From a virus (lineage: Duplodnaviria; Caudoviricetes), in the IMG/VR virus record IMGVR_UViG_2684623126_000004: DNA of 64,000 nucleotides; one strand, written 5' to 3'. The notes under the pieces were generated by a model, which was given only the letters and a program-made list of their open reading frames with translations, was not told the origin of the DNA and did not search any database. Both the position numbers and the translations under genes were made by a program. Shown one piece after another: positions 10,501 through 63,664 of the stretch (within the stretch, counting starts at the first letter, position 1; every line of letters starts with the position of its first letter).

Positions 10501-10969
10501 CCTTCTTGCCGTCGGCGCCGATGAGCGCGCCGCCGGTGCCGGAATACTTCGCCAGAACCAGCTTTTCTTCCGGCGTCAGGCGCGCCGCATCCACTTCGCC
10601 AGTGTCGATGCGACGGAGCAAAGCCATCGCAGCGGTGTTGTCCTTCTTGCGCTGGGCCGGCTTGCGGTTAGGGTCAAACTCGTAATACTGGGCAGTCTGG
10701 TTGCGCGGCGCAGGCGGGGCGTCATCGCCGGCGGCGGCATCCGTCGGCGCGGCAGTTTCAGCCTGGGCGGTAGCGCCCCCCGTGGCCGTTTGGGCCGCGC
10801 CCAGTTCGACGCGGATCTGGTTCGCGCGCGCGGCCAGCTTCAGGCGCGCAAGCGCGTTGTCGGCATCCTTCAGACCCGCCTTGACGCGGGCGAGCTCGCC
10901 CACCAGTTTCAGCCGTGCCAGCACGCCACCTTTTCCCACGGCGCTATCGAAGGCGATACGGTTCAGCAT
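4523..10969 (-). CDS. darB: DarB-like virion antirestriction protein: N6-adenine MTase fused to SNF2-type helicase
   Basis: 2148 aa. MTase motifs EYYTPKPIA, VLDPCAGVGVF, VVTNVPFG; helicase motifs GVGLGKT, FDEAH, LTATP, EVGINLQ, QRNGRGVRQGN. Confidence 0.92.
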   Translation of the reverse strand: MLNRIAFDSAVGKGGVLARLKLVGELARVKAGLKDADNALARLKLAARANQIRVELGAAQTATGGATAQAETAAPTDAAAGDDAPPAPRNQTAQYYEFDPNRKPAQRKKDNTAAMALLRRIDTGEVDAARLTPEEKLVLAKYSGTGGALIGADGKKGSAYEYYTPKPIAEGVWELMGELGFSGGKVLDPCAGVGVFGATAPLSAAIDAVELNETSGRINGLVNDGPGYTATVSPFEKVAAATPDEQYDAVVTNVPFGGVADRGGNQLLDSRYQKEPLQNYFILRSLEKLKPGGLAVFITPPRCVSGKGGKEEELRVKASYVAEFLGAYRLPNAVFGTASADTMTDVIAFRKYSRDTLDKIAELREQSPKVLIETNVQWQPFIEGRYFDGEGKRFVLGEFVPKDPAKFRDVDRVITKAPISEIARMLKRFPDSRVNWDVLGEAETTPIIYRDGDTITQAGQTLQMQDGRWVPMARSEDSASMADMVGKLKSPYDAFEAAITWPDAEKCVNYMVETSQSLDIPDWLRGAMAEIRRLKTDADRAQFWNAGIVGMAAAQVLQERLGEETGVNFLAEYPALSDAMQRVAGVAKKRPSALGGKLRDGLLTIGNHYQKKTGFSAVWRGDVQQAAPSVETTADSTFEGLRYKTKSIWAGLDDAKAIYGESFDPHADPAWCLSPDGKSVTRADDYYVGNYADFLTRVDADIASAATEEVRAKLLRQKMDAAARIDKVDVSKLTFNLFSPHVSLEEKADFLRRFVHPSAAVIYDERTGEKRVDIDVPGSNLTDREKLLNRIGDYLKNGTITLGGVKLGMEDAKALQELRRMVNTANEQFNGWVRGNRAIVARLEAIASDPAKLRFRQVEDEAPMPIPGMNPNLTLHGYQNSYVRKTSREFGGINGFGVGLGKTFTALAATQYAQSIGVKAKTAFVVPNSVLSNWRKEASRAYASTDDCLFIGLRVGKDGKATVSSSNFDTDLTAVMENRHSKIFMTLEAFERIRLRDDTISAYEAFMRQADASFAESMDKKEDERAKGKQAGLLAVLSDKRGGAPYLEDMGIDSVVFDEAHVFKNSAQTVDFKSAKFLSLSPASRRGIDAQAKAWFIRGKSERKDGVLMLTATPITNSPLEMYAMLSLAAGHERVNDMCLGIRGADNFMEMMCAKENQDDVTMDGVARTTDVFVGLNNVGVLRKAIGEVATIKSAEDVGEQIVVPDREEKATPVTLPPDIVDRLKLYKGAFRWAIDLISEKSPNRGDQAAYDQVAEHFGEELNLIGHPFNLINKMTLLIADPELDQRATFYSFIQTQAAKAKDAITQFNGKKFIEERPRPGPMTDEKAIVGHRTIKDTAGQETELLKIQVQAKVIDGNRVVIDTIDPDTQSAFEAIAEKLGLDLDVSVPPKLAAMLENFQHEQASPRGIDESGATASIVKQIVFCDILPLHNKIKRLLTRRAGIPSAAIAVITGRTNNSPDEILAVQDGFNAGGDDNKYQTVIANEKAEVGINLQKGTQAIHHLTIGWTPDSLEQRNGRGVRQGNKTQRVSLYYYDADGTFDTSKRSMVNKKADWIGQVMDVNGSGSVAVTGGLSKEQMEALIDVVGDADAMRRMQETIAVKEAQARAANNRDRQMINLDTIRKQNAFLNDNKSADSFIIRKVIGLWKLERQAATLRDRISNPKATATAVAKNESLLAELTASMGGLRRQIEESATLFRTEWRAGGQVREAATLDAFFSALRSNPRKQKDDDIESMLLGRTYPAFAIEATEGGPITNEWQAEVDMAQSMIAESKANFARQAEESGGYPASVAEDIAAGNGIIYNGKPLLDGTFVRVKGGLAVLSLVKGVPRAFGRTLNGQPLAANTQDVLAGEWVYRGTADYDACITDAAKIEDKVNSGGTIENGFNEVVPEVAQRRKTEALVAYATHSYMLPQPFFPYVIPPRDASKTTVMQRIFDSQKAIIRSFDEAGNFVVPSDAAVERIGGGAYGNSADKHRAAMREFATAYGLKMTIADFDNFDMWVQNEIESNVSLDALKAALTGESEPEIIEQASAFMRAAAPWFDWQAKDPASDYLPYQFKRAIEEAVRKVVTGGQPKGDLPNDVVGIKGNTRAWKETIKQCAGVAGSGKFKWDGDALTWNVYRSTWEYLIKTYPKAQEQLELAPATREI

Positions 10970-10982
10970 GTCTTTCTTCCCT

Positions 10983-13900
10983 TCAGGAGAGGTTGGCGGT
11001 AGCGGCCAGCATGGCGTTCTGGTAGGTAGCCACGGCTTGCTCGAACAGGGTCACAAGCGCGGGGTCGTCTTGGTTGCGGTTGAAGGCGGCTTCCAGCGTG
11101 TCGGCGAGGTCAGGGGCCAGAATGTCGGGCACCGTGCCGTCGATGACGGACTGGAACAGGGCGCGGTCGGCATCCTTCTGCGGATCGGCCTGGCCGTCGC
11201 CAGCACCGCGCTTGGCGGCCTCGGCGTCCGCAATGGCGATGGCCGCTCCAACATCGGTCGTCCGGCCAATCTCGGCTGCCGCGCCCGTGATGCCGCCACT
11301 AAAGCCCACGGTGAGGCGCACCACAAAGCCGTCTTCAGTCACCCGGATGTTGAACTGAAGTTTCTTGTCGCCAGCCTGCACCGAGCGCACGTAGTCGTTG
11401 TTCAGAACGCGGCTGAAGCCGGCGGCGATCAACTCGGGAACGTCCGGCGAAATGTCGGGCAGCGCATCCGGTGCGGCGGTTTGCTGCGGCTGCTCTTCGG
11501 CGGCAGTCTTGCCGCGAATTTGCCCGATGGTCTTGGGGTTGAAGTGAAAGTCCAGTTCCACGCCGGCCTCCGTGAGTTCGTAGATGCTGATGTAGCCCAG
11601 CTCGCCGCCATCGCCGTACAAGTCGGCCAGGCCGAACGCCTGCTCGGTTCCGGTTCCCTCCATGTCCTTCTCGGTGATGTACCAGTCGCCAGCGCCACGG
11701 AAGTAGTGCAGGTGGGCCACGGCCTCGTCGCCCTTGCCGTCCTGGTCGTAGGTCTTCGGCATGGTGGCGATGACGCCGGCCAGCTCCTTCATCTTGTCCG
11801 CGAAGAACTGCCATTCCTCGCCCATCAGCCCGGCGATGACGGCCTTGTTTTGGGCTTCCGACATCCAGCGGTTCATGCCGGTGTCGGTCAGCACCTTGAG
11901 CGCGTCCATGCGGTCTTTCGCCGGGCCGGTGAAGGCTTCAGCCTGCGCGGTGGTGGGCTGCTCTTCAGCAGAGAACAGGGCCTCCACCATTTCCGGGGCA
12001 TCGTCTTCGGAATACATGAACGGGCGGCCCTCGCTGCCCTTCACGCGCTCGTCGCCGGCCTCGCCGACATACACCATCGCCTTGCCGTCGTCGCCGATGT
12101 CGATGCGGCCCAGCACCTGGTCGCCCTTCTTGACCTTGCCCACGTAGCCGTCGTCATCCACTCCGTCCAGCGCGGGCGACTGCTCGGGCTTCGCGCCCGC
12201 GCGCCCGGTCAGTCGGTCGCTGATGGCGCGGGCATCGTTGGCAAATGCACCTATGCGATCCGTTTCCTCTTGCGTCATTTCCACACCGGAAAGCGACGCT
12301 CCGAAAGACATCACCGAACGCAGCGGCACGAGCGCACTATCGAAGGTGGCGATTTCGCTCACGCTGTCCAGCGCAGCGGCGAACTTCTCATCCGACGCGA
12401 GGAAGACGCTGAAGTTGTTGAGCAGGGCCTTGGTGGCCGCGACGGCGCGCACCTCGGTTTCAACCTCGAAACCGGCGGCGCTGTCCAGGGCCGTCTCCAC
12501 GTCGAACGTAGCCCCGACTTCGGCTTCGTCCGGCTCGTAGTCGCCCTCGGTCAGGATGGCGATGGCTTCCTCAATGCTGGCCGCTACCTCGGCTTCGAGG
12601 TCGGCTTGCTCGGTGTTGCCCTCGCTGCGGTTGATGGGCTCGTTGTTCTTCGCCACATCCAGCGCCTGTTGCAGGGCAGCGACGGCGTGGCCGGTATCGT
12701 CGAGCGACGCGACAAGATCCCGGCCCTCGTTCGTCAGCCAGTTGTAGCCGTCACGGCGCTCGATGTAGCCGCGCTCCACCAGCGAATCTCGGGACGCCTT
12801 GGACGGCACATCGCCGTCCTCGATCTTGGGGTTCTTCTTCATGGCGCGCAGCGTGTCGAACTCGCCGCCGTCAAATTGCTCACCGGCGATGGTATGGACG
12901 GAATCCATCGCAGCGCCGGCGAACTCGCCCCACTCGATTTCCGCGCCGTGGCGCTTGGCGGCCTCGTCCATGCCCTTCGCGGTCACGAACGGCGAGTAGT
13001 CGCCCTTCAGCACGGATTCCGACAGCCAGAGCTTGAATTCGTCGGTAGCACTGGTGAAACGGTAGGCTTCATCGACGGCGGCGATTTTCTCGGCGTCGGT
13101 CTTCTCGGACTGCGGCTCGGCCACGCCCAGCGATTCCAGCGCCTGGCGCAGGCCGCCGAAGGCCAGCGCGGCCTTCAGGAAGCCGTTGAAGTTCTTGCTC
13201 TTCAGGCCCGTGATGCGGTCGCCCTTGCGCACGTAGTACGAGGTCGCGGCGCCGCGCTTGCGTGCCACCACCTCGCCGAAGCCCTGCTCGAAGAGCGATT
13301 TCACGAAGTCCTGCCCGTTGCTGACGGTGCCTTCGGTCGTGCGCACGCTGATGGAGGTCAGCCCGTTCCAGGCCCACTTCAGGTTGTCGTCGCGGCGCTT
13401 GGCTTCTTGGGCCTCGCTGCGTTGCGCTTCCAGTTCGGCGCGCTTTTCAGCGGTGATGCCCGCCCATTCGTCGATCTGCGGGCGACGGTCGCGCTGGGTC
13501 TTCGCCAGCTTGATGCCCGTGGCGCGCTCGAAAATCTCGGCGCTGGACTTGTTGTCGAGGTTGCTCAAGATGCTCCACGCCAGCGCGGCGTCCTTCGCCT
13601 CGATGGCGGCGACGATTTGCGGGGTCTGGCTGCCGGTGTCGATGCCGGCCTTGTGGAAGACGGCGGTGGCCACGTCGGCGAGCGGCGTTTCCGGGGTCAG
13701 CGCGGCGACTTCCGACGTGCCCTTGGCGATCAGGCGTTCCTTGGCGATGGACTGAATCCGGTCGCGCGCGGAAGCGGCGGCGTCCAGGGCGGCACTCCAC
13801 GCGGCGAAGCCGGGATCTTCGCGCAGGCTGGAAAGGCGCTCGTCCCAGGTCTTGATGCCGCCAGCTTCCAGCGCCTGCGACGCCTTGCCGATGATGTCGT

Positions 13901-16223
13901 ACTGGCCGGCGCGAGACGCGACGCCCAGTTTGTCGAGCTCGGCGCGCATGGTCTGGGTGTCGATGATGCCGTCCCAATTCACCGCAGCGACGGCGGCATT
14001 GATCACTGCGGCGGCGGCGCCGAACGACTGCACGTAGGCGTCGATCAGCTTCTGGGCGTCGTCCTGCTGGCCGGTTGCCTTGCTGAAAAGAATGTCCTCG
14101 CCCTTGACCAGCTTGAGCTTGGCGCGCACGTCATCCACGGTCAGAGACTTCCCGGCGAAGGCGTCGCCCATTCCGACGAACACATCGGAACGCAGCCATT
14201 CCACGATTTCGGCGGGCGTGCCTGCCCGCTCGCGGCCTAGGGTGCCGTCCTTGACGTGCGCCAGGTAGGCTCCGCCCTGCTCGGTCAGCGTCAGGTAGTC
14301 GTTGCTGCGAGACTTGCCCAGCAGGTACACGGCGGCGTATTTCTCGCCGAAAGAGCCTTCCCACCACTTGGCCGACTTCTTGGCCTGCTCGGCAGCGGCT
14401 TCGTCCCCGCCAAGCTCCTTCAGCAGGGCTTCGTCCTCTTCGGGCGTCGTCGCCGGGCTGGTGTCCTCGGCCACGGTGTAGCCGGCCTCGCGCAGTTGCG
14501 CGATGGTCGGTGCAGCATGGGCGGCCAGCACCTTGCCGCCTTCAGCGCCCGGCGTGGCGTTGATAGTGCTCCACGCCTTTTCGCCTTCCGGCGTGTTCGG
14601 GAAGAACGACGTGAAGAGGCCGTCGGCGCTGTTGCGATAGGTGATGTCGGGTTTCTGCTGCGCCTCCTTCGCGGCCTGTACGCGGCGCGCCACCTCTGCC
14701 ATCGCCGCCGCATCCACCTGGGCGGCGTAGTCTTCCGGCGTCTTGGTCAGGTCGTCGTCGATGCCGTTCATGGCCCAGCCGGCGACGTTGCGGCCCGCGC
14801 CGACGTGCGTAAAGGTCGGCTGCACTTCGGCGTCGCCCTTGTAAAGGCGGGTATCGCTCGGCTCGCGGCCCTCCCAGCCCAGCGCGCGCAGGGCATTTCG
14901 GACGGCAACGATGCGGCCCTGGAAGAAGGCGTCGAGGCGGTCTTGCCAGTAGAGTTGCAGGGCTTCGTCGCCGCGCACCTTGGCGTAGCCCTCGGGCGTG
15001 GTCGGGTCGAACTCCGGCTTACCCTCGGCGGCCACCTTCGCCACTTCGAGTTCATGCTGGGCGGTCGCCAGTTCGGTTTCCAGGGTGGCGATTTCGTCCT
15101 TCAGGGTCTGGATGTTCTGCATCCGGGCCGCGCGCGTGGCATTCACGCGCTGGAACGCCTCGCTGTTCTTCTCGGCCAGGCGCATGATGCGGCGCGCCAC
15201 CTCGCGGATGTTCAGGTCGGCGCCGCGCTCCGGCGCGACGACGATGGTGATGTCCTTCTTGTTCAGCAGCCATTTCCACGAGATAACCTCGTCCGCCGGG
15301 GCCATCTTGTTCGGCGTCACGTCGGGGTTGTGGAAGAAGATGGTCACGGTCTGGCCGTCGGACAGCTCGAAAATGGCCGCCACGTTGGCGACGCCGCGCT
15401 GCTTGAACGGGTCGGTGACTTGCAGGGCGATTGGCTTCACCTTGTCGCCGGTGCGCTCCATGATGCCGCGCAGCAGTTCCATCCGGCGTTCCAGCTTGGC
15501 GTAGGGCGTCACCAGCGCGTCGAAGGCCAGTGCGCCATCGGCGTCGTCGATGATTTCCTGGGCGGTCACGGCATCCAGAAGAAGGCCCTCGCCGCTGTCG
15601 GAGCGCCGGATGTCGTACAGCACCTTGTCCAAGGTGGTGTCGTAGGGCAGCGCGTCGGTGTTCCAGTGAGTTTTCTTCATGGTGTCAAGTCCTTCCTTGG
15701 GTAGGGTGTCGGCCCGAAGCGGGCTCTTCAGGTCGCCGTTGTCCAGCCACCACTTGAGTTGAGAAAGAGAGGCCGGGACGATGCTTTCCAGCCCGTCCCA
15801 GCCGCGTTCGTAGCTGTTCAAGTAGGCGGCGCGCGCCGATGCCAGGTCGGGAAAGGCGAGCATGACTTTGTGCTCGTCGAACTGGCCGCCGATGTTCTGG
15901 TTGATGACGTAGGCCCGCTCCGATTCGGGTAGCGGGCCGATGAAGCAATCCACGCCGTCGCCGTCCGCGCCGGTTGTGCCGCCGATGTAGCCGTAGTGCG
16001 CCGCCATGCGGCTAGACCACGCCTTGCCAGTCTTTTCATCCACGCCGGAGCGCGTGCTTCCGCGCGGCTGCTCGATGGCAAGATTCAGGCCGTACAGGCT
16101 CACCCGCCCCACCTTGTAGTTGCCGGCGCGGCACTGGGCTTCCGACGGTTCAGGCGTCAGGTTTTGGCCGAATGCGCCCTCGTGGGCGGCGCGCTCGATG
16201 AGGTGGAGAGGGGTATGGGACAT
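10983..16223 (-). CDS. darA: Extended DarA-like polyvalent protein: inorganic-pyrophosphatase-like domain, DarA_N, multiple inserted domains, DarA_C
   Basis: N-terminal HYGYI..GADGDGVDCFIG..DEHKV (InPase-like); FELSDGQTVTIFFHNPD..ISWKWLLNKKDIT (DarA_N); MPKTYDQDGKGDEAVAHLHYF..DWYITEKD..QAFGLADL..ELGYISI (DarA_C). Start placed at ATG 16223, just after promoter B; the ORF track extends to 16289. Confidence 0.85.
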   Translation of the reverse strand: MSHTPLHLIERAAHEGAFGQNLTPEPSEAQCRAGNYKVGRVSLYGLNLAIEQPRGSTRSGVDEKTGKAWSSRMAAHYGYIGGTTGADGDGVDCFIGPLPESERAYVINQNIGGQFDEHKVMLAFPDLASARAAYLNSYERGWDGLESIVPASLSQLKWWLDNGDLKSPLRADTLPKEGLDTMKKTHWNTDALPYDTTLDKVLYDIRRSDSGEGLLLDAVTAQEIIDDADGALAFDALVTPYAKLERRMELLRGIMERTGDKVKPIALQVTDPFKQRGVANVAAIFELSDGQTVTIFFHNPDVTPNKMAPADEVISWKWLLNKKDITIVVAPERGADLNIREVARRIMRLAEKNSEAFQRVNATRAARMQNIQTLKDEIATLETELATAQHELEVAKVAAEGKPEFDPTTPEGYAKVRGDEALQLYWQDRLDAFFQGRIVAVRNALRALGWEGREPSDTRLYKGDAEVQPTFTHVGAGRNVAGWAMNGIDDDLTKTPEDYAAQVDAAAMAEVARRVQAAKEAQQKPDITYRNSADGLFTSFFPNTPEGEKAWSTINATPGAEGGKVLAAHAAPTIAQLREAGYTVAEDTSPATTPEEDEALLKELGGDEAAAEQAKKSAKWWEGSFGEKYAAVYLLGKSRSNDYLTLTEQGGAYLAHVKDGTLGRERAGTPAEIVEWLRSDVFVGMGDAFAGKSLTVDDVRAKLKLVKGEDILFSKATGQQDDAQKLIDAYVQSFGAAAAVINAAVAAVNWDGIIDTQTMRAELDKLGVASRAGQYDIIGKASQALEAGGIKTWDERLSSLREDPGFAAWSAALDAAASARDRIQSIAKERLIAKGTSEVAALTPETPLADVATAVFHKAGIDTGSQTPQIVAAIEAKDAALAWSILSNLDNKSSAEIFERATGIKLAKTQRDRRPQIDEWAGITAEKRAELEAQRSEAQEAKRRDDNLKWAWNGLTSISVRTTEGTVSNGQDFVKSLFEQGFGEVVARKRGAATSYYVRKGDRITGLKSKNFNGFLKAALAFGGLRQALESLGVAEPQSEKTDAEKIAAVDEAYRFTSATDEFKLWLSESVLKGDYSPFVTAKGMDEAAKRHGAEIEWGEFAGAAMDSVHTIAGEQFDGGEFDTLRAMKKNPKIEDGDVPSKASRDSLVERGYIERRDGYNWLTNEGRDLVASLDDTGHAVAALQQALDVAKNNEPINRSEGNTEQADLEAEVAASIEEAIAILTEGDYEPDEAEVGATFDVETALDSAAGFEVETEVRAVAATKALLNNFSVFLASDEKFAAALDSVSEIATFDSALVPLRSVMSFGASLSGVEMTQEETDRIGAFANDARAISDRLTGRAGAKPEQSPALDGVDDDGYVGKVKKGDQVLGRIDIGDDGKAMVYVGEAGDERVKGSEGRPFMYSEDDAPEMVEALFSAEEQPTTAQAEAFTGPAKDRMDALKVLTDTGMNRWMSEAQNKAVIAGLMGEEWQFFADKMKELAGVIATMPKTYDQDGKGDEAVAHLHYFRGAGDWYITEKDMEGTGTEQAFGLADLYGDGGELGYISIYELTEAGVELDFHFNPKTIGQIRGKTAAEEQPQQTAAPDALPDISPDVPELIAAGFSRVLNNDYVRSVQAGDKKLQFNIRVTEDGFVVRLTVGFSGGITGAAAEIGRTTDVGAAIAIADAEAAKRGAGDGQADPQKDADRALFQSVIDGTVPDILAPDLADTLEAAFNRNQDDPALVTLFEQAVATYQNAMLAATANLS

Positions 16224-16229
16224 GCAGGC

Positions 16230-16274
16230 ATGGTATGGCCCGCGTTGCCCGTTATTTCGGGTGGTTTTCCGCCT
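16230..16274 (-). promoter_or_regulatory. Putative late promoter (site B) upstream of darA
   Basis: AGGCGGAAAAC-N28-TACCAT, then 6 nt to the ATG. Confidence 0.7.
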
Positions 16275-16461
16275 CAATGTCGGCGGCAAGCTGATGGATG
16301 GTGATGCAGATGTCGGCCAGGTCGCGGCCAGCTTTCGACTTCTTGGAGAGGCCCCCGAAGTAGTCCAGCTCGGCGGCGATGTCGGCCATTTCGTCGGCCA
16401 TCGCGCGCAGCCGCTTGGCCGGCGCTTCCGGCGGCGACTGCGGCGCGGGACTGCTGCTCAT
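16252..16461 (-). CDS. Small hypothetical protein between hdf and darA
   Basis: 69-aa helical ORF filling the gap, 4 nt after the hdf stop. Confidence 0.55.
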   Translation of the reverse strand: MSSSPAPQSPPEAPAKRLRAMADEMADIAAELDYFGGLSKKSKAGRDLADICITIHQLAADIEAENHPK

Positions 16462-39235: not shown

Positions 39236-40152
39236 AGTGCGCCTCCTTGGCCGTAGTTGCGGTTCTCGTAGCCGCCGTGGGTGCCGGTCGCCGCCGGGCC
39301 GCGCGCGGCACTACCCTCTTGGCCCTGCTTGGCGTACCAGGTCGCCCGGAAGCCCTGCCACGAGTTCGTCGCGGACACGCGCACGGCATCGGCGGGGGTG
39401 ATGCCGGCCTTGGCGGCCTCGGCCTTCACGTCATCCCAAGCGGTTTGCGTCAGAGGGGCGCGCTTCGCGGAACGCACCTTCAGCCAGTCCTCGGCATGCT
39501 TGCGCTCCACGCCCTCGGCAACCAGCTCGCGCACGCCCAGCGCACGCGGCAGACGGTCGGCACCCTTGCCGCCTTCGGCAGCAGGCGCAGCAGCACCGCC
39601 AGGCTGTCCGGGTTCAGCAGGCAAGCCTTCGCCGTCAGGCCCAGGGGCCGAAGGTGCAGGCGCGCAAGCGCCCCCTGTATTCCCGTCAGGGAATACAGAA
39701 GAATCTTTATCTGTATCTTTATCTAGCGTGACATCGCGTGACGCGACGTGACCACTGCCATTCCCAGCAGCTTCGCGGGCCTGCTTTTCGCGCTCGCGCT
39801 GGGCCTGCTTCCTCTCGGCAGCGGACTTTGCGCCGGTTTCCGGGTTGCCCGCATCCTCGCGTTTCGGCTGGCGCTTTTCCCAGCCGGACAGGCGATCACC
39901 GTCCAGCACGCGGCCCTGCATGGCCTTGAAAATCGCCTCGATGGCCTCGTCCGTCACGTCGAGCGCGCTTGCCACATCTTCCGCCGTGACAGTGACGTGA
40001 CCGCGCGTGACATTTCGTGACGCATCCACCATCAGATGCAGGGCAACCGACAGAACAAGGGAAATAGGCTGGCCGGAAGTGCGCGCGACGGTACGCCACT
40101 TCGGGTCATTGGGCATGTCATGCCACAGCCTGAACCACTCAATAGCCGCCAT
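39232..40152 (-). CDS. Lambdoid replication initiator (O-analogue, YdaU-like)
   Basis: WFRLWHDMPNDPKW..GWEKRQPKRED; DKDTDKD linker; WQGF C-terminal domain; upstream of the DnaC-like gene. Confidence 0.8.
   Translation of the reverse strand: MAAIEWFRLWHDMPNDPKWRTVARTSGQPISLVLSVALHLMVDASRNVTRGHVTVTAEDVASALDVTDEAIEAIFKAMQGRVLDGDRLSGWEKRQPKREDAGNPETGAKSAAERKQAQREREKQAREAAGNGSGHVASRDVTLDKDTDKDSSVFPDGNTGGACAPAPSAPGPDGEGLPAEPGQPGGAAAPAAEGGKGADRLPRALGVRELVAEGVERKHAEDWLKVRSAKRAPLTQTAWDDVKAEAAKAGITPADAVRVSATNSWQGFRATWYAKQGQEGSAARGPAATGTHGGYENRNYGQGGAL
39700..40021. repeat. Iteron-like CGTGAC repeats with 10-bp phasing and an adjacent AT-rich patch (putative ori)
   Basis: CGTGAC at 39727, 39737, 39747 and 39985, 39996, 40006, 40016; AT-rich 39700-39726. 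Confidence 0.6.
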
Positions 40153-41392
40153 GCAGCCCCCCATTGCTGGCAGCGAAAGCCGCGTTGAAGCCGGGGGCGC
40201 CCCGGAAGCGTTGCGCCGCCGCAATCAGGTATTCCCGGCACCGCTCCGTAACCAGCCAGCGCCGGTTATTCAGCTCGGCACCGCGCCCGGTCGTCGCCCA
40301 TCCACCAAACGGATCCACGATCAGGTCGCCGACCTCGGACAGGAAACGGACGAAGTGCTCTGCCAGCTTGACCGGCATCAGCGCCGGATGGGCCGGCAGG
40401 TCGTGCCGCATCGCAAAGTCACGCGCGGGTTGCTGGTCTGGGTCGCGGTGTGGGACGGCCAGCACGTTGCGGGCGATAGCGCCCTCGGTCGGCGCGCTGA
40501 AACTGCCCTCGCGCACCGTGTAGGCTCCGCCGGCGTAACGGGCGTACTGCCGCACGCCACCAGCGTCCATGAACCTGCGGTGCTTGTCGGTGTGCTCGCG
40601 CAGGCAGCGGCGATTGTCGGCAATCACCAGCTCCGGGTCATTGGTGAACCACAGCACATGCTCGTAGGCCGTGTTGTGATGCACGCGCTTGATCGAGGCC
40701 CATTGCACGGGGCCGGGCGGCTTCGTCGGGTTGTGCCAGACGAAACGCTCCATCAGATGCAGGCCCAGCTTGTCGTGCAGCGCCAGGGTCAGCCGTTCCA
40801 GGTAAAGCGAGCGCGCCGGGGATCCAGGCACGAAAATATCGTTACCAAGGTTCAGCACCACGCTACCGCCGGGCCGCAAGTGCGCCACAATGGGCTCAAG
40901 AATCGGCAGCAGCCAGTCAATGTAGGCGGTTTGGTTGGCATTGCCGTAGGCGCGTTGTTTCGCCAGCGGGTACGGCGGCGAGGTAAAGGCCAGTGTGATT
41001 TGCTCGCCAAGTCCAGAGAACACATCCTCGGCATTCGCCCAGAGGGCGCAGCCAAGGTCGGTAGAGAACGCCAGCAGGATGGAGCGACGCGGTGCCGGCG
41101 TCAGCTCCTTCTTCGCATCACCGCTCAAGCGCCAGGTGCCACGATCAACCCGTTCCAGAACACCAAGGTGCTTCAGGGTCTGTTGGTGCCAGCGCACCTT
41201 GCGCTCGAACAGGTTGTAGCTCTTGCCGGACTTGCCTACGGGTGCGCGCGCGTCAAGCGCCGCCTCGGGGATGTCGAGCTGTAGGGCAAGCTGCTGGAAA
41301 AGCTCGCGGTTCGTCAGGTGGTCACGGCCAACAAACGGCGCCAGCACGTCTTCGGCGGAAAGGCCCTTGATGTCATCCATCTGCGGCTTCAT
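40139..41392 (-). CDS. Orphan beta-class DNA MTase (SPPY, probably N4-cytosine) with Mrr_N-like winged-helix N-terminus
   Basis: FTSPPY (motif IV) precedes DPFGGWATTG (motif I); N-terminal FERKVRWHQQTLKHLGVLERVDRGTW. Confidence 0.85.
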   Translation of the reverse strand: MKPQMDDIKGLSAEDVLAPFVGRDHLTNRELFQQLALQLDIPEAALDARAPVGKSGKSYNLFERKVRWHQQTLKHLGVLERVDRGTWRLSGDAKKELTPAPRRSILLAFSTDLGCALWANAEDVFSGLGEQITLAFTSPPYPLAKQRAYGNANQTAYIDWLLPILEPIVAHLRPGGSVVLNLGNDIFVPGSPARSLYLERLTLALHDKLGLHLMERFVWHNPTKPPGPVQWASIKRVHHNTAYEHVLWFTNDPELVIADNRRCLREHTDKHRRFMDAGGVRQYARYAGGAYTVREGSFSAPTEGAIARNVLAVPHRDPDQQPARDFAMRHDLPAHPALMPVKLAEHFVRFLSEVGDLIVDPFGGWATTGRGAELNNRRWLVTERCREYLIAAAQRFRGAPGFNAAFAASNGGLHGGY

Positions 41393-41890
41393 TCAGCACC
41401 CCGCAATCGGATGAACGCGCCCGACAGGCCGCACGCGGCCAAGGCTTCGGCATTGGCCTTGCCAAAGGCGATCAGGACGGATGGGGCGCCCGAATTTCCG
41501 GCACGCCCCCCCCCCAGGAAGCCTGAACGACAGGCGCCCACGCAGGAACAGCATGGCGTCGGCCTTGGGCCAAACGTGGTCTTGGAAGACAGCGGTTTCG
41601 GTGCGCGCAAACACCAGGGCAATAGCGTTGCCGTGGGCGGCGCAGCGTTCCAGCCACAGGGCCGCGTGCGGGCCATAGGGCGGGTTGCACCAGACACGGC
41701 CAGCCCATTCGCGGGTCAGGCCGTCGTCGCGGATGGTGAATTGCTGGCGTGCCGTGCGCCACGGCTGAAACTCGCTCGCGCAGGGGTCGAGGTCGAACTC
41801 GCCCAGCGTCGCCAGTAGTTCGGGCGGGGTCAGCCAGTCGTGTGTCGTGGCGGTCGAGCCGGATTCTCCGGTTTCAAACAGGACGTTCAA
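41389..41890 (-). pseudogene. Phage Dam-like N6-adenine MTase frameshifted at a G10 tract
   Basis: DWLTP..FDLDPCA..WCNPPY..ARTET..FLRGRL in one frame; the conserved GNSGAPSVLIAFG continues in another frame after poly-G 41506-41515. G9 would restore the frame and an ATGA overlap with the next gene. Confidence 0.8.
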
Positions 41891-43302: not shown

Positions 43303-43363
43303 TAGCACGGTGCTACACAAAAGCAATAGCACCGTGCGTCTTCCAATAATTAGCAGGGTGCTA
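43303..43363. promoter_or_regulatory. OR-like operator region with three 13-bp palindromes (consensus TAGCACNGTGCTA) and overlapping PR/PRM-like promoters
   Basis: Sites at 43303, 43327 and 43351 (24-bp spacing). Minus strand TTGCTT-N16-TATTAT; plus strand TTCCAA-N17-TGGAAT. Confidence 0.85.
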
Positions 43364-43835: not shown

Positions 43836-44684
43836 ATGGTCGAGGGGAACGTAGTGCAAGAAAAAATCGAAGTCGCCACCGATGACATAGAAACCATCCT
43901 GCGCTTCATGCTGGGCTTCTATCACATCAACACGGGCGCCGCCGACGACCTGTTTAATATCGAGCCGGCGCACCGCGAGCGCGTCGTGGAAACCGGCATG
44001 GCACGCACCGTCGCCCAGCTCGCCAAGCTGGGAATCCCGTGCATCGAAGGAAAGCTGCGCGGCGGCTCCCTGGTCTTCCTGGGCGACCCAGACCTTGAAG
44101 CACACAAGGCACTGTATGGGCCGGGCACCATCTGCGTGTTGGAGAAGCACATGGCCCAGCACGATGAGCGCGCCCTGCTCGATGGGTTCGAGGCCAGGGT
44201 GAGGCTGGATGGCTCCGACACTTGGCTATGTGTCGGCATCAGCCCCACGGCAGCCTTTGAAGATGAAGATGAAGAGCCCGAAGAGGAAGAGCCGCCGATG
44301 CTCCCTCCGCCATCCACCATGCACGACATCAACCGCGTCGCAGTCATTGCGGCAAGTGCCGATGGCTTCGGTGTCGTAGCGCGAAACCGCGAGCTACGCG
44401 CCGACTTCGTGCGCCCTATTGCGCAGAGCGAGTTGCCTGAATCGGAAGAGTCCATCGTCCAGGCCATCGCGCAACAGGCCGTGACGTTCTGGGAGTTCGG
44501 TGTGGTGCCGATGCGCGCGAAGGAATTAAAATCGAGCGGAAAGAAGATCGCCGAGATTGCAGAAGCCCTTGGCATCACCAAGCAGCGCGCCGAACGCGCC
44601 GTGGGCATGGAAATGAAGCTCACGCTCATTGAGAAGATGGCAGAGTATCAGGCCAAGAACGAACAGAAAGGAATCGCACCATGA
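43836..44684 (+). CDS. Unknown protein with acidic linker and C-terminal HTH (immunity-region accessory)
   Basis: 282-aa ORF; KKIAEIAEALGITKQRAERAV. Confidence 0.65.
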   Translation: MVEGNVVQEKIEVATDDIETILRFMLGFYHINTGAADDLFNIEPAHRERVVETGMARTVAQLAKLGIPCIEGKLRGGSLVFLGDPDLEAHKALYGPGTICVLEKHMAQHDERALLDGFEARVRLDGSDTWLCVGISPTAAFEDEDEEPEEEEPPMLPPPSTMHDINRVAVIAASADGFGVVARNRELRADFVRPIAQSELPESEESIVQAIAQQAVTFWEFGVVPMRAKELKSSGKKIAEIAEALGITKQRAERAVGMEMKLTLIEKMAEYQAKNEQKGIAP

Positions 44685-45118
44685 CCATGCTTCGCACCGC
44701 GCTCCTTGCCGCCATGCTGCTGGCCGGCGTAGCGCAGGCCGCACCACCCGCGCTGTCCGATCAGCAAATATCGACGATTGCCGGGATGATGTTCCAAGCC
44801 TACGCCGAGGGTGGCGTGCCCCAGATGTTCGCCGACGAAATGAAGTGCTGGGACGACGCATCGAAGACCAAGCGCGCCGACAAAAACGTGGTGGCCGCCT
44901 GCGCCACAGCGGCAATGTCCGGCGGCCTGATCGAGGCATCATTTGCACGCAAGCAGCGGCGCGGCCCGAGTCCGCAGTACGCCGGCGACGCCATCCGCGC
45001 GCGCATATCCGACCTGTCCGGCTTGAATCCCGACGTGCTGCAATCCCTATCCGATGAAACCCTGCGGCCAGGCGTACCCGCCATGCTGACCGGCCTACAG
45101 GGCGCCGGCATGAGATAG
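44681..45118 (+). CDS. Secreted/periplasmic protein (signal peptide, two Cys)
   Basis: MTMLRTALLAAMLLAGVAQA signal peptide; ATGA overlap with the upstream gene. Confidence 0.7.
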   Translation: MTMLRTALLAAMLLAGVAQAAPPALSDQQISTIAGMMFQAYAEGGVPQMFADEMKCWDDASKTKRADKNVVAACATAAMSGGLIEASFARKQRRGPSPQYAGDAIRARISDLSGLNPDVLQSLSDETLRPGVPAMLTGLQGAGMR

Positions 45119-45148: not shown

Positions 45149-45180
45149 AGAAGCCCGGCCATTTGGCCGGGTTTTCTTTT
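45149..45180 (+). terminator. Intrinsic terminator ending the cI operon
   Basis: AAGCCCGGCC-ATTT-GGCCGGGTTTTCTTTT. Confidence 0.85.
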
Positions 45181-45191
45181 GTCGAAAAATT

Positions 45192-45232
45192 TAGCACGGT
45201 GCTATTGACAATGAAAAGCACGGTGCTATCAT
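45192..45232 (+). promoter_or_regulatory. PL-like promoter with two OL operators
   Basis: TAGCACGGTGCTA at 45192 and AAGCACGGTGCTA at 45216 (24-bp spacing); TTGACA 45205-45210 and TATCAT 45227-45232. Confidence 0.88.
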
Positions 45233-45239
45233 TCGCCTT

Positions 45240-45720
45240 ACTGAAGCGCGCAACAGCAGGCAAATGCAGAGCGCGGTGCTCCTTAAAAACTTGGTGGATG
45301 AACAGAGGCGAGGCCCCTTCGCAAGAGGCGCGGCGACAACCTCCTACCCCGTGGCGCGCACGGTAGAAGCAAAAGTGCGCGAAACCCGAATCTCCCTGGG
45401 GGAGTGGCCCGTGGGGCTGCGTTGAAACCATAGGTTCGGTTTGCACGTTCGCTATTTGCGAACTGCGAACGCCCACCCGTCCGTGGCGCAGGTAACGACG
45501 GGCAGAAGTGAAGTCCCTGCAATCAGGCCCCGCGAAGTCGGGGCGAGCCGCCCGTGACAGCGGGCATAGCAGGGGCGCGGCGCGCGCACTACGTCGCATC
45601 AATGCCGCAACCGGCCAGGCCCAGCGTCTGGCCGGAGTGATGCCCTGGCAACAGGGCCATCACCACCGCCGATTGCACCCAGTCGCCGGTGCTGATGCTC
45701 CCCTCAACCACAACCGAAAG
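45240..45720 (+). ncRNA. Long structured PL leader (candidate cis-acting RNA)
   Basis: No credible ORF; many hairpins and an H-type pseudoknot at 45344-45381. Confidence 0.4.
45277..45290 (+). promoter_or_regulatory. boxA-like antitermination element
   Basis: TGCTCCTTAAAAAC about 40 nt after the predicted PL start; resembles lambda/rrn boxA. Confidence 0.45.
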
Positions 45721-46882: not shown

Positions 46883-46958
46883 TGCGGCGTAGAGCAGTTG
46901 GCAGCTCGCCGGCTTCATAAGCCGGAGGTCGCTGGTTCGATTCCAGCCGCCGCTACCA
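46883..46958 (+). tRNA. tRNA-Met (CAT), initiator-type scaffold with atypical anticodon stem
   Basis: Cloverleaf TGCGGCG/CGCCGCT, D arm GAGC/GCTC, anticodon arm CCGGC-TTCATAA-GCCGG, T arm GCTGG-TTCGATT-CCAGC, encoded CCA; 1:72 mismatch and A11:U24. Confidence 0.92.
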
Positions 46959-47203: not shown

Positions 47204-48178
47204 ATGAGCCAAATCGGCATCGTCTTCGGCAAAAAGCACGCGCCCTGGACGCGCATCGACAACAGCGGCGCCATCGTCACCCCGGACGCCAGCTTCTTCA
47301 GTAACCACCCGACCTTCGCCGGCATCGCCGACGAGGAAATCGACGGCCAGAGCATGGTGCGCGTGCCGGCCTTCTACTACCGCTCCGACATCGTGCGCGA
47401 CGGCCCGCTGCTGGGCAAGAAGGCGCTCTGGGTGAGCGACGAACCCGCCGAAGGCTACGCGCTGCATCCGGCCTTCCGCAACAACGGCGCCGACCTCGCG
47501 CAATACTGGCTGGGCAAGTACCAGGGCACGCCGGACGGCGACGACAAGCTGGGCTCGCAAGCCGGCCTGATGCCGCTGGCACGCATCGACTTCCCCACCA
47601 TGCAGGCGCGCGCCGCCGCGCGCGGCGAGGGCTGGATGTTGTGGAGCATTTACCAGCTCGCGGCCATCCAGGCGCTGGCGCTGATCGAGTGCGGCACGCC
47701 CAACGTCAAGTCCATCCTGGGCGAGGGCTACATCGACGGAAACGGCGTGCGCAAGGTCGATGACGCCGAGGTGGTGCAGGCGGCCTACCGGGGCATCACG
47801 GGCCTCTGGGGCAACGTCTGGCAGATGCTGGACGGCTTGCAGACCGGCGCGAACCGCGAGTTCCTCATCTGGGACAAGGACGGCCACCGCAACCTGCTCA
47901 ATACTGGCATCGAAGCGCCGGAGCATGGCTGGATCCACAAGCGCCTGCGCAACGTCGGCGAGGGATTCGACCTGGGTGCGGCGTTCGTGCCCAAGAAGAC
48001 CCGCGACGAGCAAGAGGACGCGGCCTACGGCAACTACTCGTGGTTCTGGTCTGGCGGCGTGGCGTACCACGGCGGCAATTGGGGCGACGGCGCGGCCGGC
48101 GGGCTCTTCTGCCTGTACGTCTACAGTCCCGCGTCGCACGTCAGCACGACTGTCGGCGGTCGCCTCGCAAAGGTGTAA
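47204..48178 (+). CDS. C-type-lectin-fold (FGE/Mtd-like) protein with a DGR variable-region-type C-terminus
   Basis: DGQSMVRVPAFYY, HPAF, YRGITGLWGNVWQMLDG, and C-terminal YHGGNWGDGAAGGLFCLYVYSPASHVSTTVGGRLAKV. Confidence 0.8.
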   Translation: MSQIGIVFGKKHAPWTRIDNSGAIVTPDASFFSNHPTFAGIADEEIDGQSMVRVPAFYYRSDIVRDGPLLGKKALWVSDEPAEGYALHPAFRNNGADLAQYWLGKYQGTPDGDDKLGSQAGLMPLARIDFPTMQARAAARGEGWMLWSIYQLAAIQALALIECGTPNVKSILGEGYIDGNGVRKVDDAEVVQAAYRGITGLWGNVWQMLDGLQTGANREFLIWDKDGHRNLLNTGIEAPEHGWIHKRLRNVGEGFDLGAAFVPKKTRDEQEDAAYGNYSWFWSGGVAYHGGNWGDGAAGGLFCLYVYSPASHVSTTVGGRLAKV

Positions 48179-48205
48179 TGGGTCATGTCGGCATGTGTCA
48201 TGTAT

Positions 48206-48241
48206 CCGGGCGAGCCTGCCGAGCAGGCCGCCCGGTTTTTT
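48206..48241 (+). terminator. GC-rich hairpin plus U6 (terminator and/or DGR homing hairpin)
   Basis: CCGGGCG-A-GCCTGC-CGA-GCAGGC-CGCCCGG-TTTTTT, 27 nt after the stop codon. Confidence 0.75.
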
Positions 48242-48254
48242 CGCAGCGCGAAAA

Positions 48255-48753
48255 ATGGCACTCCGGCGATCACGGCGGAAGTGCTTAGGCTCCTTCTGCA
48301 CTATGACCCCTACACCGGCGTCTTCGCCTGGCGCGCCCCCCCCAGTCGAACCGCGCTCCCGCCGGAAGCCCGGCAGGAACAATGCGAAACGGCTACGTCC
48401 GCATCCGCATCGCGGGAAAGGACTACAACGCGCATCGCCTCGCCTGGCTCTACGTGTTCGGCGTCTGGCCTGAAAAGCTGGTCGATCACATCAACGGCAG
48501 GCGCGACGACAACCGCATCGGCAACCTGCGCGAGCTCTCGAACACCGAGAACCAGCAGAACCGCCGCCGCGCTGCGCGGCACAGCAGCACCGGCCTGATA
48601 GGCGTCAGCCAAGGCCGGCGTGAGGGCACGTTCCGCGCCCACATCACGCTGAACCGGGAGCGTCAATTCCTGGGCCACTTCTCCGACCCATTGCAGGCCC
48701 AGCAGGCGTACATCGACGCCAAGCGGTGCCTGCATCCGTTCGGAACCATCTGA
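48255..48753 (+). pseudogene. HNH homing endonuclease (HNH_3 plus AP2-like), frameshifted
   Basis: ITAEVLRLLLHYDPYTGVFAWR is in a different frame from AGSPAGTMRNGY..AHRLAW..DHING..DNRIGNL; the break is at a C8 run, 48336-48343. The residual ORF is 48382-48753. Confidence 0.7.
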
Positions 48754-60818: not shown

Positions 60819-61322
60819 ATGGCTTCAGTCAATAAAGTAATCCTCGTCGGCAACCTTGGAGCCGACCCCGAAACCCGCTACATGCCGAACGGCGACGCCG
60901 TGACAAACGTCCGCCTGGCGACGACCGATAGCTGGAAGGACAAGGCCAGCGGCGAGAAGAAGGAAATCACGGAATGGCATCGCGTGGTGTTCTACCGCCG
61001 CCTCGCCGAAATCGCCGGCGAATACCTGCGCAAGGGCTCGTCGGTGTATGTCGAGGGCCGCATCCGCACGCGCAAGTGGCAGGACAAGGACGGCCAAGAC
61101 CGCTACACGACCGAGATCGAGGCCACGGAAATGCAGATGCTGGGCCAGCGTGGCGGTGGCGACGGTGGCAGCCAGCAGTATGGCGGCGAATCGTCGGCCC
61201 AGCCTTCGCGCCAGCAGCAGCGTTCCGCGCCCGCGCGCGGTGCCCCGGCCTCTAAGCCAGCTCCACCGCCGTCCGGTGGCGGTGGCTTCGCCGACATGGA
61301 TGACGACATCCCTTTTGATTGA
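60819..61322 (+). CDS. ssb: Single-stranded DNA-binding protein
   Basis: [38 protein letters not shown]..acidic DDDIPF tail. Confidence 0.95.
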
Positions 61323-61389
61323 GCAGCGCACGACTGCTTCATCAACGTGCAGGCCCCGACGAGGGCCTACCCAACACCATCACCTACAA

Positions 61390-61416
61390 GGGGCGCCGCG
61401 AGCGCCCCAATTTTTT
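61390..61416 (+). terminator. Intrinsic terminator after ssb
   Basis: GGGGCGC-CGCGA-GCGCCCC-AA-TTTTTT. Confidence 0.65.
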
Positions 61417-61432
61417 GCAAGGAGCCCGCCAG

Positions 61433-63664
61433 ATGCTGCGCCCGCAACTCGCCCTGCCGTTCCCCGGAGAACTCATCATCGACAACTTCGCCGGTGGCGG
61501 CGGCACCAGCACCGGACTGGAAGCAGCCTTCGGGCGCCCCGTGGACATCGCCATCAACCACGACCCCGAAGCTCTGGCGATGCACGCGATCAACCACCCT
61601 TACACCAAGCACCTCTGCGAGAGCGTATGGGATGTGGATCCCATCGAAGTAACCGGCAACCAGCCGGTGGGCCTGGTCTGGCTTTCGCCGGACTGCAAGC
61701 ACTTCTCGAAGGCGAAGGGCGGAACGCCTGTTTCCAAGGAGATTCGCGGACTGGCCTGGGTCACGATGCGCTGGGCTGCGCTCTGCCGCCCGCGCGTCAT
61801 CATGTTGGAGAACGTCGAGGAATTTCAGACCTGGGGGCCGGTCATCGTCGGAGAGGACGGCAAGCTCTACCCCGACCCGAAGCGCAAGGGCAAGACCTTC
61901 GATAGCTTCATCCGGCAGTTGCGCCAGCACGGCTACAAAGTGGACTGGCGTGAAATGCGCGCGTGCGACAACGGCGCCCCGACTATTCGCAAGCGCCTCT
62001 TCCTGGTGGCGCGCCGCGACGGCCTGCCCATCATCTGGCCCGAGCAGACCCACGGCGAGCCGACCTCGCGCGAAGTGCTGGCCGGCTCCCTGGCCCCGTA
62101 CCGCACTGCCGCCGAGTGCATCGACTTCAGCCTGCCCGCCGAGAGCATCTTCGACCGCAAGAAGCCCTTGGCCGTGAATACCCAGCGGCGCGTCGCCAAG
62201 GGCCTGTACCGCCACGTCCTGACGAGCGCCAAGCCGTTCATCGTCACCAACACCACCGAGCACTCCGGCGCGGCTGCCGATGAACCGCTGCCGACCGTGA
62301 CGACCGGCAATCACCACATGCTGGGCGCGCCCGTGCTCGCCCCGTTCATGGCTGGTGCCGGCGGCCCAGCCTATTCCGGCAAACCCGTGGCTGCAAACCA
62401 GCCGTTCGGCACGCTCACCACGGAGAACCACCGCGCCATCGTGGCGCCGGCCCTGGTGCCGTTCCTCACCGAGCACGCCAACGCCAGCAACCAGCGCACC
62501 ATGCCCGCCGACGCGCCGCTGCGCACCGTCTGCGCCCAGGTGAAGGGCGGCCACTTCTCCGTCGTCGCCCCGACCTTGGCCCCGCTGCGCGGCACCAGCG
62601 ATGCCCACATGGGCGGTCATAGCATCGAGCAGCCGCTTTCGACTATCTCCGCCGGCGGCACGCACCATGCGATGGTAGGCGCGCACCTCGTCACCATCGG
62701 CTACGGCGAACGCGAGGGCCAGCAGCCGCGCGTGCAGGACATCGAGGCCCCACTGGGAACCGTCGTAGCTGGTGGGGTGAAGCAGGCCCTGGTGGCCGCG
62801 CATCTGGCCCACCTGACGCACCACGGCGAGCGCGCTGGAACGACGCCGGCGGAGCCCTTGCCGACGGTCACGGGCGCACATCGTGGCGAGCAGGCCCTGA
62901 TCGTCGCCAACCTGGTGGATATGGGGCATGGCGAATCGTGCAGCACCGGCGCGAAGCGGTGGAGCAACGGCGTCCGCTCCCTGGAAACTCCGCTCAATTC
63001 GGTTACGGCCAGCAGCGTCCCGAGCGCCCTGGCGTCGGCCTTTTTCGAGCAGGCCAACGGCGGGTTCTACGACGGCTCTGGGCGGGCTGCGGAAGCGCCC
63101 ATGTCCACCATCACCTCGTCGGGCAGCAATCAGCAGTTGGTAACGGCCTACCTGGTCAAGTATTACAGCAGCGGCGGCCAGTGGCAGAAGGCGGACGAAC
63201 CGATGCACACTCTGCCGACCAAGGGCCGTATGGGCCTGGTGCAGTCGGTGCAGGTGCCGGCGGACTGCTTGTCACCGGAACATCGGGCGAAGGCCCGCCG
63301 CTGCGCCGAACTGCTGCATGAACATCTGCCCGAGCACTTCCCAGAGCCCGCCGACCTGGTGCTGATGAGCTACGACGGCATCTGGTGGGTGCTGGTGGAC
63401 ATCACGCTGCGGATGCTGAAAGCGCGCGAGCTGTACCGCGCCCAGGCGTTCCCCGACAGCTACATCATCCACGAGATCCCCGACCCGCTGCTGCTCTTCA
63501 AGGAGGGCGTGCAGGTTGCCGACCCCTTGGCTATCCCCCGCGTCCCGCTGACCGTCACCGCACAGGTTCGCATGTGCGGAAACAGCGTGTCGCCGGCGCA
63601 GGCCGAGGCCCTTGTGCGGGCCAACTTCCGCCACGAAGCGGCCTTCATGGGGCAAGTCGCGTAA
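61433..63664 (+). CDS. C5-cytosine DNA methyltransferase with expanded repetitive variable region
   Basis: DNFAGGGG (motif I), SPDC (IV), ENV (VI), RKRLF (VIII), CGNSV (X); AAGGAG SD before ATG 61433. Confidence 0.9.
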   Translation: MLRPQLALPFPGELIIDNFAGGGGTSTGLEAAFGRPVDIAINHDPEALAMHAINHPYTKHLCESVWDVDPIEVTGNQPVGLVWLSPDCKHFSKAKGGTPVSKEIRGLAWVTMRWAALCRPRVIMLENVEEFQTWGPVIVGEDGKLYPDPKRKGKTFDSFIRQLRQHGYKVDWREMRACDNGAPTIRKRLFLVARRDGLPIIWPEQTHGEPTSREVLAGSLAPYRTAAECIDFSLPAESIFDRKKPLAVNTQRRVAKGLYRHVLTSAKPFIVTNTTEHSGAAADEPLPTVTTGNHHMLGAPVLAPFMAGAGGPAYSGKPVAANQPFGTLTTENHRAIVAPALVPFLTEHANASNQRTMPADAPLRTVCAQVKGGHFSVVAPTLAPLRGTSDAHMGGHSIEQPLSTISAGGTHHAMVGAHLVTIGYGEREGQQPRVQDIEAPLGTVVAGGVKQALVAAHLAHLTHHGERAGTTPAEPLPTVTGAHRGEQALIVANLVDMGHGESCSTGAKRWSNGVRSLETPLNSVTASSVPSALASAFFEQANGGFYDGSGRAAEAPMSTITSSGSNQQLVTAYLVKYYSSGGQWQKADEPMHTLPTKGRMGLVQSVQVPADCLSPEHRAKARRCAELLHEHLPEHFPEPADLVLMSYDGIWWVLVDITLRMLKARELYRAQAFPDSYIIHEIPDPLLLFKEGVQVADPLAIPRVPLTVTAQVRMCGNSVSPAQAEALVRANFRHEAAFMGQVA

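Follow-up and report, generated by a model that had tools for sequence, protein, structure and literature searches.

A very probable second, non-adjacent target of a prophage's single DGR, lying in a PL-like early operon

The usual account of phage DGRs is that they diversify tail fibres. In their mechanism, the reverse transcriptase (RT) and Avd copy the RNA of a template repeat (TR) with misincorporation at adenines, and the cDNA replaces any variable region (VR) that carries an IMH and a downstream hairpin. In Bordetella phage BPP-1, whose cassette is ordered mtd-avd-TR-brt, the one target adjoins the cassette and encodes the trimeric fibre-tip protein Mtd. TaqVP from a Thermus aquaticus prophage (PDB 5VF4) is a monomeric single-domain variable protein, whereas Mtd trimerises via extra N-terminal domains, and taqvp is drawn adjoining its avd-TR-RT (PMC6328139). 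Targets are not always adjacent to their cassettes: the survey of Wu et al. (2018, NAR 46:11; PMC5758913) has 45 DGRs with non-adjacent targets, describes prophage DGRs that pair an adjacent target with a non-adjacent one, usually within ~50 kb, and two DGRs with solely a non-adjacent target, 20 kb away, and gives neither the phage module nor the identity of the second target. In Treponema denticola, Legionella and cyanobacteria, one TR acts in trans on distant signal-bearing VRs; these are cellular elements with surface or regulatory targets. Furthermore, tentaclin DGRs of gut phages diversify two different CLec proteins, proposed adhesins with an N-terminal CLec domain followed by Ig domains (PMC10743442). 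The approach of the largest metagenome survey, that of Roux et al. (2021), could not detect remote targets (PMC8144416), and cytosolic VR proteins have been hypothesised only, for cellular DGRs, as recognition modules (PMC10053308). A literature search gave no report of a phage DGR target in an early operon, nor of a function or an anti-defence role for such a target.

The gene described here, called target 2 (Table 1), is very probably the second, non-adjacent target of the single DGR of its prophage, and encodes a stand-alone variable protein from an early operon. Its DGR resembles that of BPP-1 in having Avd, RT and an AAY-rich TR, adenine-specific changes, an IMH/IMH* pair, a GC hairpin and a CLec protein. 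However, one TR here faces both an adjacent fibre gene and a remote gene, and the remote target is single-domain, belongs to an early operon and is 56.7 kb from TR on the chromosome, or ~18.7 kb via attP in the circular phage. TaqVP is matched over the whole length by profile and by fold, being likewise a stand-alone single-domain CLec protein of the FGE type with a C-terminal VR, but target 2 is remote from its cassette and the identity is only ~18%. The architecture, one adjacent plus one non-adjacent target, is that of the prophage DGRs of Wu et al.; what was worked out here beyond that survey (PMC5758913) is the early-operon position, the operator-controlled promoter, the family of short paralogues and a cassette without an adjacent target. 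Unlike the Treponema, Legionella and cyanobacterial elements, this DGR is carried by a phage and its two targets move with that phage, and unlike the tentaclins, the target 2 protein has neither Ig domains nor a position in the structural module (PMC10743442). Non-adjacent prophage targets are thus already known, and it is the class of early-operon, non-fibre targets that seems uncharacterised.

Table 1. Coordinates of the features at the target 2 locus and of one related locus; positions are those of the window unless a contig is named.
Feature	Position	Strand	Description
Three operator copies	43303..43363	.	TAGCACGGTGCTA-like, spaced 24 bp; flanked by the divergent cro-like (-) and cI-like (+) genes
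cI-position ORF, 148 aa	43377..43823	+	first of the cI-orf282-orf145 unit; role inferred from position alone
PL-like promoter	45192..45232	+	TTGACA-16-TATCAT with TG, 11/12 matches
tRNA-Met (CAT)	46883..46958	+	in the early operon, directly 5' of the target 2 gene
Target 2 gene	47204..48178	+	324-aa stand-alone single-domain TaqVP-like CLec/FGE-fold variable protein
VR2	48062..48171	+	110 nt homologous to TR; 13 substitutions, every one at a TR adenine
IMH region	48155..48205	+	GC-rich stretch common to TR, then sequence in common with VR1 only (twin GTCATGT motifs), where TR diverges (IMH*)
Target-recognition hairpin	48206-48235	+	5 bp, bulged A, 6 bp, 3-nt loop CGA; T6 at 48236-48241
HNH_3 homing-endonuclease gene	48185..48753	+	frameshift in C8 run ~48340; C-terminal piece 48382-48753 matches PF13392
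Pigmentiphaga sp. NML080357 tandem cassettes	L097, G303:C7:4000-20000, 4911-10127		two complete avd-TR-RT sets

The window, that is, the whole stretch of 64,000 nucleotides that was analysed, corresponds to G000:C1:3464818-3528817 and lies in a 75.6-kb prophage of a 6.17-Mb genome. A sequence-only reading of the window had regarded the gene as an orphan target with no TR copy in the 64 kb. A repeat search of the window agrees as to the TR and gave no second VR copy either, but the orphan look is an artefact of the window edge, and a search of the genome for TR, RT and avd, which that reading had advised, found all three in the same prophage: the complete DGR (bAvd, TR and intact RT) is 8.6-10 kb left of the window start, beside a fibre-like target with VR1. 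When the whole genome was searched with the DNA of 47980-48260, two further copies were obtained, both on the minus strand, at 3457472-3457650 and 3456056-3456166. The cassette occupies the minus strand at G000 3454831-3460183, in the order 884-aa ORF ending in VR1, 193-aa ORF, 102-aa ORF, 117-aa bAvd, TR (110 nt, ~3456061-3456170) and 354-aa RT. The RT matches RVT_1 at 6.7e-27, the single RVT_1 match in the whole 6.17-Mb genome (3455074-3455682), and retains YMDD and the DGR-typical VGALTSQ motif, while bAvd matches PF22296 at 3.9e-24; target 2 and its cognate RT and Avd are, in short, in one replicon. Tail-to-tail with the RT gene is a tyrosine integrase gene (Arm-DNA-bind_3 plus Phage_integrase) with a riboflavin-synthase-like gene to its left, and at the far end of the prophage a C5 methylase gene is followed to the right by an Exo_endo_phos (xthA-like) gene. 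In addition, a 15-bp direct repeat, AAAGTGGGTAGCTAG, is present at G000 3453479-3453493 and 3529090-3529104, with host genes beyond; such a repeat is expected by chance at an estimated ~4e-4 and is likely the att core. From the integrase, the flanking host genes and the repeat, the element is therefore taken to be ~75.6 kb long with both targets inside.

TR, VR1 and VR2 align without gaps. From the first AAC codon to the IMH, 13 of the 13 differences between VR2 and TR are on TR adenines and none is on another base (sites 48068, 48084, 48086, 48095, 48096, 48099, 48116, 48122, 48126, 48137, 48144, 48150 and 48152). The TR core contains 28 A in 110 nt, mostly within AAC/AAT codons, and the chance of 13/13 at A is ~(28/104)^13, roughly 4e-8 as an arithmetic estimate. 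The variable codons in VR2 are CAC, GGC, GAC, GCC, GGC, TAC, TAC, AGT, CAC, AGC, ACT and GTC, and those of TR, in the same order, are AAC, GAC, AAC, AAC, GAC, AAC, AAC, AAT, AAC, AAC, AAT and ATC. Ten of the 12 variable codons guessed earlier without a TR were right, and two, TGC and CCC, were wrong, being invariant scaffold codons that also stand in TR. At the 5' edge of VR2 there are two or three non-adenine differences (T>G, T>C), which we read as outside the homing tract, and VR1 differs from TR at 14 adenines and by one T>G. Since the residues of VR1 and VR2 differ at most variable codons, neither was copied from the other, and recombination between the two VRs as the origin of their likeness was rejected for this reason.

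VR1 and VR2 are identical over ~34 nt spanning the stop codon, while TR departs right after GCAAA (IMH versus IMH*); the tract 3' of the VR2 stop that is common to VR1 reads TAATGGGTCATGT...TGTGTCATGTA. It is followed by the hairpin, so that both the IMH-like tract and the GC-rich hairpin expected after the stop are present. As DNA, the VR2 hairpin folds at -21.6 kcal/mol (z -4.2). The VR1 and VR2 hairpins have the same shape, and their inner stems differ yet pair (GCCTGC/GCAGGC versus GCGCGC/GCGCGC). Moreover, when 21 targets, short and long, are compared across genomes, both sides change in 7 of the 11 pairs, and pairing is found in 90.5% of cells, as against 36-47% with the 3' arm slid. Because both VRs carry the IMH and the hairpin, each would be rewritten independently from the one shared TR; judged by the adenine-only differences and by the near-identical alleles described below, VR2 is a live or recently live target, and retrohoming would still be active. 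The hairpin with its T6 at 48206-48241 also looks like an intrinsic terminator, a reading that is local because the T6 after the hairpin is not conserved in relatives. A possible start of the HNH_3 gene overlaps the IMH and hairpin of VR2.

The target 2 ORF runs on the plus strand from ATG 47204 (MSQIGIV...) to TAA 48176-48178. This start is backed by ~57 full-length homologues of 319-331 aa with the same start; a longer ORF from 47132 is possible, to which the homologues give no support. The ORF is intact, and its GC3 of 0.91 is the top value in the early region. A Pfam search of the protein gave no family, and PHROG 5302 ("tail protein") matches it at 3.4e-36 over the C-terminal 315 of 548 profile positions. 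Of the 884-aa fibre-like target, the protein aligns to residues 541-884 only, with 48% identity: it is without the first 540 residues of the fibre, including its Ig-like domain, and N-terminal trimerisation or attachment domains (Mtd-type beta-prism, beta-sandwich) were not found in it. An AlphaFold2 (AF2) model built with 42 homologues (pLDDT 95.9, pTM 0.94) is one compact domain. The closest PDB structure, both by profile (9.6e-18) and by Foldseek (2e-15), is TaqVP, after which come PvdO, TvpA, Mtd and formylglycine-generating enzymes (FGE); the Foldseek values of the model for 2Y3C and 1YU1 are 4.8e-4 and 7.3e-4, respectively. The AF2 model, Foldseek and HMM comparisons thus give a CLec fold with the C-terminal VR on its binding face, and the earlier view of the gene as coding for a DGR variable protein of CLec fold is borne out by this model, the TaqVP match and the relation of TR to VR2. 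No signal-peptide-like hydrophobic run was seen when the N-terminus was inspected by eye. Our best guess is that the protein is a soluble, probably monomeric early binder. The predicted compact single-domain fold of the family would make a natural scaffold for binder engineering.

As the sequence-only reading had proposed, the setting of the gene is like that of lambda PL and not a tail module; the operators, the promoter and the tRNA-Met were all found (Table 1), promoter, operator and terminator calls being consensus matches. The 13-nt palindrome TAGCACGGTGCTA has 9 strand-matches at 5 sites in the window versus 0.69 expected. Besides the three copies between the divergent cro-like and cI-like genes, copies at 45192-45204 and 45216-45228 overlap the -35 and -10 of the PL-like promoter. 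The 148-aa ORF at the cI position gave no match in a Pfam search, and its unit is ended by a terminator-like hairpin with a T-run at 45150-45175. From the promoter, the gene order is a KTSC-like gene, two small ORFs, tRNA-Met, target 2 and the hairpin with T6, and then, further downstream, the HNH gene, which the earlier note had rightly called decayed (it is frameshifted in the C8 run), a gene in the RecT position (PHROG 3657) and a YqaJ exonuclease gene. With such a layout the lysogen should not express the target 2 gene, which should come on soon after induction or infection; early expression is inferred because the near-consensus promoter is overlapped by two repressor operators. The single-domain CLec protein would accordingly be transcribed from a repressor-controlled promoter together with recombination genes.

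The arrangement is repeated in relatives. The same layout is found in a 75.9-kb IMG/VR provirus, whose short gene is 93% identical; several non-adenine positions distinguish its TR from the TR studied here, and at these the two VRs of the provirus track their own TR, from which they differ solely at adenines. In genome contigs, the family comprises long forms (840-945 aa) with an RT 1.6-2.7 kb downstream and short forms (321-399 aa) without an RT within 10 kb, with the single exception of L038. Furthermore, eight genomes carry a long and a short form on the same contig (Xylophilus, Gulbenkiania, a Burkholderiaceae MAG, an Alcaligenaceae strain, Bordetella hinzii, Pseudomonas sp., Pusillimonas and an alphaproteobacterial MAG), and there the VR of the short gene matches the TR adjacent to its long counterpart, nearly all mismatches being at A. 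Clusters of the short protein at 90% identity hold 63 to 126 different sequences. In two alignments (11 and 15 members), body identity to the first sequence is 92-97%, and heavy variation is confined to ~12 columns, which are the TR adenine codons; the comparison of alleles across strains proposed earlier thus gave variation limited to the VR, a pattern that fits repeated rewriting and not a relic. Close relatives among isolated phages were not found, since tblastn against 50,697 phage records gave partial matches of 26-30% only, and among 300 genomes of the same GTDB family the sole match was the source genome itself. Short-form proteins 93-97% identical outside the VR occur in Alcaligenes, Pseudomonas nitroreducens, P. 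aeruginosa, Burkholderia anthina and Pseudothauera, and this spread may mean either a very broad host range of the phage group or a recent spread.

In a domain tree built without the last 42 residues (the VR), a 100/100 clade of 13 short forms sits on a long stem, separate from the fibre domains, while the short forms of Pusillimonas and the alphaproteobacterial MAG each cluster with the long form of their own genome. With two separate short groupings, the stand-alone state needs two changes on the tree, and the stand-alone copy therefore seems to have arisen twice. The tree thus gives, in silico, the picture of an old paralogous split of the short form from the fibre domain, apparently long retained. 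Many Proteobacteria have lambdoid or Mu-like prophages in which a short copy is found with the early genes. In a 93% relative (a Logan contig), P. aeruginosa, a Pseudomonas-type prophage and B. hinzii, the short gene is on the early strand downstream of a repressor-type gene, with RecT, YqaJ, SSB, RdgC or methylase genes as neighbours; in Pusillimonas it follows RecT, YqaJ and Dam-type methylase genes, and in the alphaproteobacterial MAG, a Mu-like phage, it is between MuA/MuB and Mor, that is, in the Mu early region. The short gene is in an early operon here and in all relatives examined, and was not seen in the tail module beside the DGR cassette.

Five genomes have a short gene without a listed long partner, and each has two tandem RTs, 74-75% and 43-47% identical to the RT studied here. 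At the locus of Pigmentiphaga sp. NML080357, a 364-aa TaqVP-like target with VR is followed by a DUF5658 gene, avd-b, TR-b, RT-b, avd-a, TR-a and RT-a; both avd copies were located by tblastn, and avd-a is 83% identical to the avd of the studied prophage. The remote short gene, ~60 kb away, matches TR-a with differences mostly at adenines, and no target adjacent to cassette a was found at the locus. Comamonas nitrativorans (L096) has the same tandem layout, but its short-gene VR is out of step with TR-a (differences at A 9, G 3, C 3 and T 5), and owing to this poor fit it was not counted as a supporting case.

The readings of target 2 that compete with an actively rewritten early binder differ in what they deny. 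That VR2 is rewritten at all is denied by the frozen-relic option of the earlier note, according to which the gene is a duplicated former fibre-tip target that no longer receives cDNA and is decaying. The distance of the cassette, the broken HNH gene downstream and the out-of-step VR of the Comamonas lineage would suit such decay, but VR2 has 0 non-A differences from TR over ~76 non-A positions while identity to the fibre domain is only 48% in the remaining gene, IMH and hairpin have been preserved, with compensatory changes, the ORF is unbroken and has a high GC3, and close alleles each bear a different VR with hypervariability limited to the VR codons; we consider a relic very improbable. 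That the rewriting comes from the prophage is denied if a host (non-phage) DGR acts in trans, which had also been offered and for which the absence of TR from the window is the sole argument. The chance of this is practically negligible, as the one RT match of the genome is in the same prophage beside the matching TR, and it was the other option, diversification in trans by a DGR near the tail genes, that the cassette beside the fibre-like target upheld.

The remaining rivals concern the use of the variation. The short protein could be an auxiliary receptor-binding protein, made or kept until late and acting as a second, independently variable adhesin on the virion. Homology to the binding domain of the fibre and the PHROG 5302 "tail protein" match (3.4e-36) argue for this, early placement is compatible with late read-through, and two-target phage DGRs with two putative adhesins, the tentaclins, have been described (PMC10743442). 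However, the short protein is without an N-terminal attachment or trimerisation region and is modelled as a compact domain like monomeric TaqVP, the target 2 gene is behind an operator-covered promoter, and in every context examined, lambdoid as well as Mu-like, the short gene is among early genes and never in a tail module, so that a virion adhesin is held to be unlikely. Alternatively, target 2 may be collateral, that is, a protein of fixed function that is rewritten because it retains IMH and hairpin, its variation being tolerated and not used. No ligand is known, and one TR feeds both VRs, so the phage cannot tune them separately, which counts for this reading; against it, short genes of many lineages retain the targeting signals, with covariation, one lineage maintains an avd-TR-RT set for which no match but the short gene was detected, and the stand-alone copy seems to have arisen twice. 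We regard collateral rewriting as distinctly unlikely. A soluble binder that acts after entry and not on the virion is what we would choose at slightly better than even chances. A more specific form of this soluble-binder reading is tentative and well short of an even chance: the DGR would diversify, besides the fibre tip, an early cytoplasmic, antibody-like CLec protein that faces a variable intracellular factor of the host or of a rival phage, for example, a defence protein, the anti-defence role raised in the earlier note being likewise speculative. If this is true, every burst would carry a library of specificities for use inside the cell, and DGR-driven tropism would have a second axis, one that acts "after entry". 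Target 2 and its relatives are, in any case, a recurrent second target class, non-structural by position and predicted to be early. If the ligand is intracellular, hypermutation would serve the phage post-entry as well as at adsorption, and if the protein is a virion adhesin, the locus would still be a clean, testable case of one TR serving two targets 57 kb apart.

Several other features of the prophage and its relatives may be recorded. In the structural region, two very large ORFs are present on the minus strand (4523-10969, 2148 aa; 10983-16289, 1768 aa). There are three genes of DNA methyltransferase type, at 40139-41392 (-), 41393-41890 (-) and 61319-63664 (+), comprising an N6_N4 MTase with a Mrr_N domain, a Dam-like enzyme (by synteny with L014) and a 781-aa C5 methylase. 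After the cI-position gene and upstream of the PL-like promoter are two ORFs of 282 and 145 aa (43836-45118, +), for which no Pfam or PHROG match was obtained; in lambda, rexA and rexB occupy the position after cI, and by this position the two ORFs are therefore candidate lysogen-expressed exclusion or defence genes. An apparently non-coding leader of ~450 nt (45240-45688) separates the PL-like promoter from the first early gene and could hold an antitermination (nut/put-like) element. In the chromosome of Bordetella hinzii LR134382.1 (L020, L021), the same 323-aa short form is encoded twice, each copy being the third gene from the end of an element with a C5 methylase, one of them also with a VapE/DUF5906-type primase, and the phage or satellite type of this strain appears to differ from the prophage studied here.
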